From a virus (Duplodnaviria > Heunggongvirae > Uroviricota > Caudoviricetes): 23,494 nucleotides of DNA. Position numbers and translations under genes: made by a program. Shown here in pieces: positions 3,567-23,494 of this stretch. How positions within the stretch are numbered: position 1 is the stretch's first letter; every line of letters starts with the position of its first letter. The stretch lies in the IMG/VR virus record IMGVR_UViG_3300025597_000613, positions 1 through 23,494 of that record, one strand, 5' to 3'. The notes beneath the pieces are model-generated. The model worked only from the letters and a program-made list of their open reading frames with translations, made no database searches and was not told where the DNA came from.

Positions 3567-3595
3567 ATTATGCTGTTGGGCAGGCTTAATGTCTA
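3567..3595 (-). promoter_or_regulatory. sigma70-type promoter TAGACA-17-CATAAT
   Basis: Sequence. Confidence 0.7.
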
Positions 3596-3606
3596 CCGCT
3601 TTTTGA

Positions 3607-3774
3607 TTAGTTGACTACTACGATAGATTTATCCCAATCACCATCGAAGGGATCTCGTTCAATTTCCGAACTCACATCGTTTACCGGTTTGTATCCACCA
3701 GTGGGGCTTGGAATCTTTACTTCCTTATCGTGGTCTTCCTGTTGCAGTAGTTCGATAAGTTCGCGGACGTTCAT
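3607..3774 (-). CDS. small hypothetical protein (MNVRELIELLQQEDHDKEV)
   Basis: Start reassigned to ATG 3774, downstream of the terminator; typical phage M.V.ELIE.L N-terminus. Confidence 0.75.
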   Translation of the reverse strand: MNVRELIELLQQEDHDKEVKIPSPTGGYKPVNDVSSEIERDPFDGDWDKSIVVVN

Positions 3775-3790
3775 GATGATTCTTTCAGTC

Positions 3791-3813
3791 GAAAAGGGAC
3801 CCAGGGGTCCCTT
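3791..3813 (-). terminator. intrinsic terminator AAGGGACC-N4-GGTCCCTT followed by U-run
   Basis: 8-bp stem plus UUUU on minus strand. Confidence 0.75.
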
Positions 3814-3817
3814 GTTC

Positions 3818-3950
3818 GATGTGGTGTACGGTAGATTTATATACCGGACTTCTACGCGGGCCAGAACTTGCTGGGCATCACCACACACCACTAAACACTA
3901 TGAGGGCAGTGGAAGGACGACCCTTCCTGTGACTCCCTGCCCGAACGGCC
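3818..3950 (-). ncRNA. candidate structured RNA (bulged hairpin plus three-way junction) between gene stop and terminator
   Basis: Stems GGGCAG/CUGCCC, GGAAGG/CCUUCC, UGUGGUG/CACCACA, CCAG/CUGG, CGGUA/UACCG paired by eye. Confidence 0.45.
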
Positions 3951-3953
3951 GCC

Positions 3954-4355
3954 TTAGGCCGCGACTTCTTCAGCCGCGATCGACAGGCGCTTGTCGCCGT
4001 TCTTCAGCTCGCCGGCCTTCAGGATCAGCAGCTGGGCGGCGCCCTTGCTGATGCCTTCGGCAACCACACGACCCGAACGGGTGTTGATCACCGTCACCGG
4101 GTTTTCCACCGGACGACCACCCTTCTTGTCTTCCGGACGGCCCAGGCCCTCGACGGACTTCGGGTCAGCCACACGCTGCATCTTCAGCGCGTGGTTGTAG
4201 TGCGTGGCCGCCGACGCGACGCTGATGCCGAACTTCTGCACGGCGCCATCCATCACCTTGGCGCGGAACGCGGTGCCGTCCAGTTCGCCGGCAGCGAACA
4301 GGGCGAGGTACTTGGCGAAGCGAGCGTTGACGTAAGCGCGGATACCTTGGGTCAT
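3954..4355 (-). CDS. basic DNA-binding-like protein, paralog of 14236-14685
   Basis: FRAKV..KFGISVASAATHYN motif and KKGGRP; strongly GC3-biased codons; start ATG 4355 (alternative 4379). Confidence 0.85.
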   Translation of the reverse strand: MTQGIRAYVNARFAKYLALFAAGELDGTAFRAKVMDGAVQKFGISVASAATHYNHALKMQRVADPKSVEGLGRPEDKKGGRPVENPVTVINTRSGRVVAEGISKGAAQLLILKAGELKNGDKRLSIAAEEVAA

Positions 4356-22726: not shown

Positions 22727-23019
22727 TGGTGCCCGAAGCGGGACTCGAACCCGCATGTCTTTCGACGGGGGATTTTCTTACCACTATGACTTTCATCACC
22801 ATTTCTGTTTGTGGTCTGGACTATATCTTCACCTTTGCTTGTGCTTTAGGTGTTTGGGTATCTAGTCTCTACGGCGCTCTGGAGTTAACCAGTTCCCTCG
22901 GTGTTGCCATCAGCATTATCTGTTAAGGTTTCACCGATATCCCCAAATCCACTTTATAAGTTTCCCTATAAAGGCTCAGTTTTCAAAGTCCCCTGTGTAT
23001 ACCATTTCACCATCCGGGC
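22727..23019 (-). tRNA. trnL: tRNA-Leu(UAA), intron-containing (exons 23019-22986 and 22776-22727), CCA encoded
   Basis: Spliced product: acceptor GCCCGGA/UUCGGGC, D-arm GUG/CAC, anticodon arm GGGGA-CUUAAAA-UCCCC, long variable arm, T-loop UUCGAGU; 84 nt. Confidence 0.92.
22777..22985 (-). mobile_element. group I self-splicing intron (209 nt, no ORF) inserted after U34 of tRNA-Leu(UAA)
   Basis: P1 CUU/GAG with U-G at the splice site; P2 with GAAA loop; P4 UCGGUG/CACCGA; R GUAGAGACUA; S AAGAUAUAGUCC; P9 GAAA; terminal G. Confidence 0.92.
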
Positions 23020-23494
23020 GTTAATTTTTTCTGCAATTTTACAGCTCTTTCGTAATTACCACCTTTTGCTGCTAATCCTACGCTCTGCAATGCTTGCCTT
23101 ATATTACTATGAGATTGCAGTGCAGTCAAAAGTTCCTCGTCAGACACTTTCTTTTTTCCGGGATTTTTATTTCTACCCCTGAATGTATCTGTCTGAGAGT
23201 GGCAATTAGGGCATAACCATCTTAAATTTTCTTTTCTATTATCAGTTCTTTTACCATTTATGTGATCGAGTTCGAGAACCAGGTGTTTATTTTTCCAACC
23301 AATGATTCCGCAATCTTCGTCACTACATTTATATTCTAATATATTAAAATGATGAATATATTTTCTTAGGAATTCGCTACCCCAATGGGTATTTTCTTTA
23401 AAAATTTCCTCTTCAGTGTATGTAGTTGCCCCCTTATGAGATATTCTATCTTTTATCTCATCTGGTAATGAATGGTAATCATATCCTCTATGTG
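23007..23494 (-). CDS. HNH homing endonuclease, 5'-truncated by window edge
   Basis: LELDHINGKRTDNRKENLRWLCPNCHSQTDTFRGRN followed by VSDEELLTAL...VGLAAKGGNY helical domain; stop TGA at 23009-23007 inside the tRNA gene. Confidence 0.9.
   Translation of the reverse strand, partial: HRGYDYHSLPDEIKDRISHKGATTYTEEEIFKENTHWGSEFLRKYIHHFNILEYKCSDEDCGIIGWKNKHLVLELDHINGKRTDNRKENLRWLCPNCHSQTDTFRGRNKNPGKKKVSDEELLTALQSHSNIRQALQSVGLAAKGGNYERAVKLQKKLTPGW

Follow-up and report, generated by a model that had tools for sequence, protein, structure and literature searches.

The window analysed here is a stretch of 23,494 bp, bases 1-23494 of a 211,620-bp IMG/VR virus record with an estimated completeness of about 55% (CheckV); the sequencing runs that contain the record's sequence came from activated sludge and wastewater. 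Near the end of the window, on the minus strand, an HNH endonuclease gene runs into a tRNA-Leu(UAA) gene that is split by an ORF-less intron. The part of the HNH ORF inside the window (23007..23494) is open at the window end (23492-23007) and continues to an ATG at genome position 23609, so that 115 nt of its start lie beyond the window, and the complete ORF encodes a protein of 200 aa, denoted P0001. The 5' exon of the tRNA (22986..23019, minus strand) is 34 nt long and ends in GGGGACTT. It is followed by the intron of 209 nt (22777..22985, minus strand), located between U34 and A35, and by a 3' exon of 50 nt (22727..22776, minus strand) that begins with AAAATCCCC, includes a long variable arm and ends in CACCA with an encoded CCA. 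The HNH ORF and the tRNA overlap by 13 nt (23007..23019, minus strand): the final four sense codons of the ORF and its TGA stop fall in the acceptor/D-stem part of the 5' exon, the stop codon (23009-23007) corresponding to tRNA positions 11-13. A preliminary description of this locus, made from the window sequence, had proposed a free-standing HNH gene abutting an intron-split tRNA, its stop 13 nt inside the 5' exon and about 20 nt from the insertion site of an intron that encodes no nuclease. This anatomy was borne out, the distance to the insertion site being 21 nt and the intron containing no ORF of at least 30 aa on the tRNA strand.

The tRNA-Leu gene was found by ARAGORN in intron mode together with manual joining of the exons; default ARAGORN, and Rfam at its gathering threshold, missed the intron-split gene in the window. 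The ARAGORN intron-mode call for the window copy was tRNA-Gln, which we rejected, as the joined exons (23019-22986 and 22776-22727 of the tRNA 23019->22727, minus strand) fold as a canonical tRNA-Leu(UAA). The intron scored 46.9 bits (E 5e-10) against Rfam Intron_gpI, for which the gathering score is 50. Alignment with 35 relatives yielded a consensus fold that comprises the tRNA stems, P1 and P2-P9, with compensatory changes in 50 of 68 pairs. All 36 sequences have a U.G pair at the 5' splice site, and the last base of the intron is G. The 209-nt insert is thus identified from its sequence and fold as a group I intron in tRNA-Leu(UAA) (IC3, CUU/AAAA site). It resembles the known tRNA-Leu(UAA) group I introns in the CUU/AAAA site, the U at -1, the terminal G and the compact ORF-less core, and differs from them in that the present copy resides in a phage, with HNH genes inside or beside the intron. 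The sequence GACTT|AAAATC is unchanged in the 36 intron-bearing alleles, whose tRNA bodies are of long-arm and short-arm types.

Further introns were observed in other tRNA genes. The same intron also occurs in UAA tRNAs with a short variable arm (class I type; L036, L052, L057, L070, L091, L133 and L138); these carriers and the long-arm tRNA-Leu have only the GGACTT/AAAATCC arm in common, as if the arm alone sets the insertion site. Another group I intron, about 235 nt long and unrelated to the first, splits the tRNA between A31 and C32, 3 nt to the 5' side of the canonical site, at L153:1698-2023 (Rfam Intron_gpI 46.5 bits, below the cut-off of 50), L160:2093-2419 (61.4 bits) and L016:3179-3498 (54 bits). 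Its -1 nucleotide appears to be A, versus the usual U, and the upstream HNH ORF crosses the whole 5' exon and continues into the intron for about 40 nt. At L158:2131-2286, a tRNA-Leu(UAA) beside an upstream HNH gene carries a 71-nt insert at U34/A35 that gave no Rfam match. A group I core needs more length than this; the insert may be what a collapsed intron has left behind, and the tRNA would then be inactive. In the cultured Agrobacterium jumbo phage Atu_ph07, a 278-nt group I intron splits a tRNA-Leu(UAA) that lacks an annotation and has no HNH gene nearby (L144 c(2459-2820), corresponding to NC_042013.1 at about 112890-113251), where a small 'hypothetical protein' is annotated over part of the gene. 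A blastn search of the 3.8-kb region against cultured phages returned short matches to the intron core only, and a crAss-like match proved to be a different intron, located in a helicase gene. A single metatranscriptome contig matches the 5' part of the intron and 30 nt of the 5' exon exactly and ends short of the HNH gene; the contig, which DNA carry-over could explain, gives no sign of splicing or of transcript ends.

P0001 matched PHROG 14736 (E 2.7e-30) and PHROG 10822 (E 2.7e-28), and scored slightly under the Pfam cut-offs for HNH (19.9 bits versus 21.4) and HNH_3 (21.7 versus 24.8). Positions conserved without exception in an alignment of 67 homologues are C95, C100, H116, N128, C133, C136, H137 and five N-terminal cysteines. 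The protein is laid out as an N-terminal Cys-rich zinc ribbon, an HNH core at about residues 93-140 and a C-terminal three-helix module at 152-196. An AlphaFold (AF2) model built from the 67-homologue alignment reached a pLDDT of 88; an earlier model from 8 sequences (pLDDT 62) was discarded. Residues 71-150 of the model align weakly with the HNH domains of ZRANB3, Gme, GVE2 and McrA (Z 3.7-4.7), and residues 151-200 align weakly with three-helix DNA-binding modules (Z at most 4.8). Z-scores of this size, up to 4.8, are only compatible with an HNH domain and a three-helix DNA-binding module, and a Foldseek search of the PDB with the model returned nothing at E <= 0.001. To judge from its conserved residues and gene neighbourhood, the window ORF is the gene of an HNH (His-Me finger) endonuclease of the free-standing homing type. 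Two shorter HNH paralogues occupy genome positions 201418-201029 and about 205443-205054, within a tRNA cluster at the far end of the record; one overlaps a tRNA-Val by 1 nt, its stop codon reaching the first base of that gene, and the other lies just downstream of a tRNA-Thr.

Upstream of the HNH gene, a strong AGGAGG ribosome-binding site stands 5 nt before the ATG. A palindrome, TTTTAAGTTAAAA, occurs just past the window end (genome 23645-23657) and nowhere else in the 211-kb record, and is followed by a GATAAATA box (genome 23625-23632), which is -10-like and resembles the T4 late promoter. Both elements lie inside the 53-nt spacer before the HNH ATG and are kept as a pair in the cassettes of unrelated phages. 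In HNH genes of the upstream lineage the palindrome, TTTTAA(G/C)TTAAAA, stands 52-53 nt before the ATG, and it was found 47 nt before the ATG of one intron-encoded HNH. Its half-site, TTAAAA, equals the anticodon-loop sequence, and the ligated exons match at 10 of 11 positions. I-TevI is subject to autorepression, and by likeness to it the palindrome could be an operator that mimics the target of the nuclease. A scan for sigma-70 promoters and terminators gave nothing above chance, and apart from the palindrome no duplicated piece of the tRNA turned up in front of the HNH gene.

Relatives of the locus were sought by HNH protein in cultured-phage records, IMG/VR and a large protein collection (851 matches), yielding 20 non-redundant full-length contexts, the window included. 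In all 20 a tRNA-Leu abuts the 3' end of the HNH gene, with the anticodon UAA in 19 and UAG in one; judged from these neighbourhoods, the association of the HNH family with tRNA-Leu(UAA) is far beyond chance. Relative to the tRNA 5' end, the position of the HNH stop codon ranges from 68 nt ahead to 71 nt beyond; the ORF extends 10-71 nt into the tRNA in 13 of the 19 non-redundant relatives. Overlap of ORF and tRNA is the rule in this lineage and is best read as tight packing. The carriers include the huge phage LR756508.1 and the T4-like coliphage ACG-C40, one of more than 200 phage records with an HNH homologue. The ACG-C40 homologue, 48% identical to the window HNH over 125 aa, carries the annotation 'similar to T5 TflIV', and its gene stops 6 nt short of a tRNA-Leu(UAA) that has no intron and heads the tRNA cluster.

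The preliminary description had put the HNH gene and the intron forward as candidate partners in collaborative homing, for which co-occurrence across related phages was to serve as a check. An intron was present in 12 of the 20 HNH contexts, and these introns are of two kinds: ten contexts carry the canonical intron at U34/A35 (the window, L004, L005, L007, L008, L013 and L154-L157) and two the unrelated group I intron 3 nt upstream (L153 and L160). One context has the 71-nt insert at the canonical site (L158), and seven have no intron (L002, L003, L006, L011, L012, L151 and L159). L153, L154 and L160 have the SleB-like hydrolase gene upstream in common, and L151 has the tRNA-Arg/tRNA-Met neighbours. 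Among such syntenic relatives, with HNH proteins 61-68% identical, the tRNA has no intron, another subtype, or the unrelated group I intron 3 nt away. Even relatives at the same position thus differ in intron state; the HNH lineage is tied to the tRNA-Leu and not to the intron. HNH remnants, the last 25-60 codons, stand beside tRNA-Leu genes both with an intron (L016, L019 and L023) and without (L021/22), and such decay remnants beside the tRNA are expected in a homing cycle.

The reciprocal analysis started from the introns. A pattern made from the 3' core and the splice site was searched in IMG/VR, yielding at least 120 viral stretches, and the intron loci were then screened for HNH genes with ten queries and for tRNAs with the intron mode of ARAGORN. 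Among the matches listed, a related HNH gene lies inside the intron at about 29 loci (introns of 660-1090 nt), abuts upstream as in the window at 9, lies about 220 nt downstream on the same strand at 8, is convergent and touches the tRNA 3' end at 8, and is farther off at 4; at about 62 loci among the matches listed, HNH was not found. In a tree of 36 introns, those with an upstream HNH are interspersed with HNH-less ones (7 changes for 9 rows, a value reached in 93 of 500 shuffles), and the window intron is closest, at 71% identity, to introns without an upstream HNH. Thus the part of the earlier proposal that concerns anatomy stood, an ORF-less intron beside a free-standing HNH gene, and the part that concerns co-occurrence did not: with full-length HNH genes and remnants occurring with and without an intron, and about 62 of at least 120 intron loci having no HNH nearby, the two elements are distributed largely independently, the pattern that the preliminary description had named as refuting its proposal.

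Other nuclease genes may accompany some of these introns. Long tRNA-Leu introns of 628-768 nt in L055, L087, L100, L122, L143 and L043 gave no match to the HNH queries and may carry a different nuclease family. In the HNH-less tRNA cluster of L024 (oriented), an ORF at about 3570-4150, which precedes the intron-bearing tRNA-Leu by a few hundred bases, contains a ...YFPDFYLPDKNIYVEVKGYKTERD... motif that resembles Vsr/DUF559-type endonucleases and may represent another kind of free-standing nuclease.

DNA similarity from carrier to carrier extends from about 50 nt before the HNH ATG to the tRNA 3' end, with unrelated flanks, and delimits a promoter-HNH-tRNA(-intron) cassette of about 1 kb that is common to otherwise unrelated phages. 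The HNH gene lies outside any intron or intein and has the sporadic, cassette-like distribution of a free-standing homing gene. The identity of L008 and L013 is 94-100% in the final 130 nt of the HNH gene, in the 5' exon and across most of the intron, versus 36-56% in the middle of the HNH gene, a mosaic that resembles a recent conversion tract with the tRNA at its centre. L024 and L029 share a tRNA-plus-intron unit, 91% identical, that starts 7 nt before the tRNA, and L024 has a tRNA-Gly at the position of the HNH gene of L029. A search for an empty site by way of the upstream neighbour gene returned five loci, with no synteny, tRNA-Leu or HNH, and no closely related genome with an empty site for the window phage was found. 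The DNA runs examined held no variant without the HNH gene or without the intron, and no contigs with a joint that removes either.

A profile of the 45-aa C-terminal module of P0001 picked up the module at the C-terminal end in some of the intron-encoded HNHs (E 5e-20 to 1e-10) and at the N-terminal end in most intron-encoded and downstream HNHs (E 1e-9 to 1e-5); it had no match in the tRNA-Val- and tRNA-Thr-adjacent HNH paralogues of the same genome. This shared module is the best indirect sign that the upstream, downstream and intron-encoded HNHs may all read tRNA-Leu DNA. In a quick maximum-likelihood tree of the HNH proteins, the upstream lineage, the T4-like gene and the two paralogues of the window genome fall on one side, and the intron-encoded and downstream genes on the opposite side (SH-aLRT 93, not starred). 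The intron-less L006 and L011 are nested among intron-bearing carriers. Since the tRNA-Leu neighbours the HNH gene in 20 of 20 contexts, homologous HNHs lie inside the intron and on both flanks, and the 45-aa module is shared among them, trnL DNA is the likely target of the enzyme.

The reading that we prefer, and to which we give about an even chance, is that the window carries a free-standing homing cassette whose HNH enzyme would be directed at tRNA-Leu, the intron being a passenger, often present but assorting on its own, that would be co-converted (trans-homing). The anatomy, homology, cassette boundaries and distribution are as observed, and from them we infer cleavage, its site, gene conversion and regulation as follows. 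In a mixed infection, the HNH enzyme would nick or cut the tRNA-Leu(UAA) region of a phage without the cassette, and repair from the carrier genome would copy the HNH gene together with the adjoining tRNA gene. The HNH-tRNA junction is 34 nt away from the start of the intron, which would therefore be co-converted whenever present, in the manner of mobE and the nrdB intron; this spacing is within the distance given for trans-homing (PMC2790892). The intron would not be an obligatory partner of the HNH gene, and it may also confer immunity on its own allele. The HNH ORF has no stop of its own before the tRNA, so RNase P processing of a joint transcript would remove the stop codon, and the loss of the stop codon would probably keep expression of the nuclease low. 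A limit on expression by RNase P and the stop codon was proposed for T4 segB (PMC2330249).

The closest parallel to this trans-homing is T4 MobE, a free-standing HNH endonuclease that mobilises the adjacent nrdB intron, whose own I-TevIII is defunct (Wilson & Edgell 2009, PMC2790892). As there, a free-standing gene of the HNH family stands beside a group I intron without a working nuclease, within co-conversion distance, and upstream transcription and tight control of expression, here predicted, would be further likenesses. In the window, the likely target gene is a tRNA gene instead of nrdB, and the HNH ORF overlaps it. MobE nicks away from the insertion site of its intron. Free-standing nuclease genes embedded among phage tRNA genes also recall T4 SegB and T5 F-TflI/II/IV: segB has its stop codon where a tRNA is processed, and the F-Tfl genes of T5 are in a tRNA cluster (PMC2330249). 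SegB belongs to another nuclease family (GIY-YIG), T5 F-TflI/II/IV are HNH enzymes, and no intron is involved in T4 or T5. Homologues of the window HNH in T4-like phages are annotated F-TflIV-like and abut tRNA-Leu(UAA), a link to T5 F-TflIV that is made by annotation.

Three observations fit an anticodon-arm target rather than a mere passenger intron: the two introns beside related HNHs, the shared module, and the intron-less HNH-linked tRNA-Leu(UAA) alleles, 5 of 6 of which deviate from GACTT/AAAATC, at pair 30:40 or 31:39, with such variants in L151, L012 and L159. They point towards strict collaborative homing as the preliminary description envisaged it, a possibility that we hold only tentatively. 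The HNH enzyme would then cut uninterrupted tRNA-Leu(UAA) at or next to U34/A35, the intron would split the site and immunise the genome, intron and HNH gene would spread together as partners, and intron-less carriers would escape through substitutions in the anticodon stem. The same intron also houses genes for relatives of the HNH, and these enzymes must, by the logic of intron homing, target the intron-less site; the 45-aa module connects the window enzyme to them (E down to 5e-20) and is not detected in the tRNA-Val and tRNA-Thr paralogues. Two unrelated group I introns (34/35 and 31/32) split the loop beside closely related HNHs, introns are present in 12 of 20 HNH-linked tRNA-Leu genes, and the TTAAAA half-site with its match to the ligated exons may mark a target-mimicking operator. 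The invariance of GACTT|AAAATC in the 36 intron-bearing alleles, in very different tRNA bodies, would also suit a nuclease site, but these exon bases may serve the ribozyme rather than nuclease recognition.

Strict collaborative homing is, however, difficult to reconcile with L006, where a full-length HNH gene with all catalytic residues coexists with two uninterrupted CAGACTTAAAATCTG anticodon arms in one contig. Seven HNH lineages have no intron, more than 200 T4-like phage records among them, the introns with an upstream HNH do not cluster, the window intron being nearest to introns without one, and the upstream lineage stands opposite the intron-encoded and downstream HNHs on the protein tree. 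For HNH nickases such as I-HmuI their own intron-plus DNA is a substrate as well, and if this were true of the window enzyme, self-immunity may be unneeded. The model for collaborative homing is F-CphI with the ORF-less psbA intron of cyanophage S-PM2, according to accounts of that system (Zeng et al. 2009, cited in PMC2790892; PMC6083498). The present locus is like it in having a neighbouring free-standing nuclease gene beside an ORF-less intron, and in that homologous nucleases are free-standing in some genomes and intron-internal in others, the predicted intermediates. It differs in the enzyme, F-CphI having an Endo VII-type catalytic motif and the window enzyme an HNH motif, and in that the case for cleavage at the insertion site and immunity of intron-plus DNA, which define that system, is here weakened by the intron-less carriers.

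A wider scenario, which we regard as speculative and rather unlikely to hold in full, would make the anticodon arm of phage tRNA-Leu(UAA) a long battleground of one HNH family, with the stages coexisting today: upstream free-standing genes, downstream free-standing genes on either strand, intron-encoded genes and decayed remnants. The two introns would each have been recruited as an immunity device, and the nuclease would be held in check by a target-copying operator, with I-TevI-like autorepression, and by removal of the stop codon by RNase P.

Both a co-opted role and a relic are less likely than trans-homing or strict collaborative homing. Co-option, which we consider improbable, would have the HNH enzyme promote recombination or segmental amplification of the tRNA region, as is reported for SegB in the evasion of a tRNA-targeting defence, or attack the tRNA-Leu gene of the host, the intron being irrelevant. 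According to one report, SegB amplifies anti-defence tRNA loci (PMC13096335), three HNH paralogues in the genome lie in or beside tRNA genes, and the position of the HNH gene is conserved among syntenic relatives; but a cassette-like spread across unrelated genomes, with remnants so frequent, typifies a selfish element and not a fixed useful gene, and no defence system is tied to the HNH gene. Least probable by our estimate is an inactive or decaying relic, its adjacency to the intron reflecting the independent preference of both elements for tRNA clusters: Pfam scores below curated cut-offs, remnants in relatives and, weakly, the missing HNH coverage in one RNA run would suit it, but the 200-aa ORF is intact, has AGGAGG 5 nt before its ATG, retains all residues invariant in 67 homologues and gives a model with a pLDDT of 88.

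Intron-split phage tRNA-Leu genes escape standard tRNA and Rfam annotation. To our knowledge, free-standing nucleases that mobilise nuclease-less introns are known from a few protein-coding phage genes only (psbA, nrdB and DNA polymerase); the pathway of the T3/phiI DNA-polymerase intron, a further parallel to collaborative homing, is said to have been described by Bonocora and Shub in 2009 (cited in PMC2790892). All phage group I introns known by 2014 were in protein-coding genes, according to a review of that year (PMC3984707), a 2020 preprint mapped introns of the present type in bacterial genomes only, and our literature searches returned no description of an HNH/intron-split phage tRNA-Leu system. 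The same interplay of nuclease and intron would here take place at a tRNA gene. Its natural sample is rich, with at least 120 viral contigs, T4-like coliphages and Atu_ph07, and with related HNH genes both within the intron and at each position about it, so that the proposed route from a free-standing nuclease and a bare intron to a mobile intron becomes testable by comparison and by cleavage assays.
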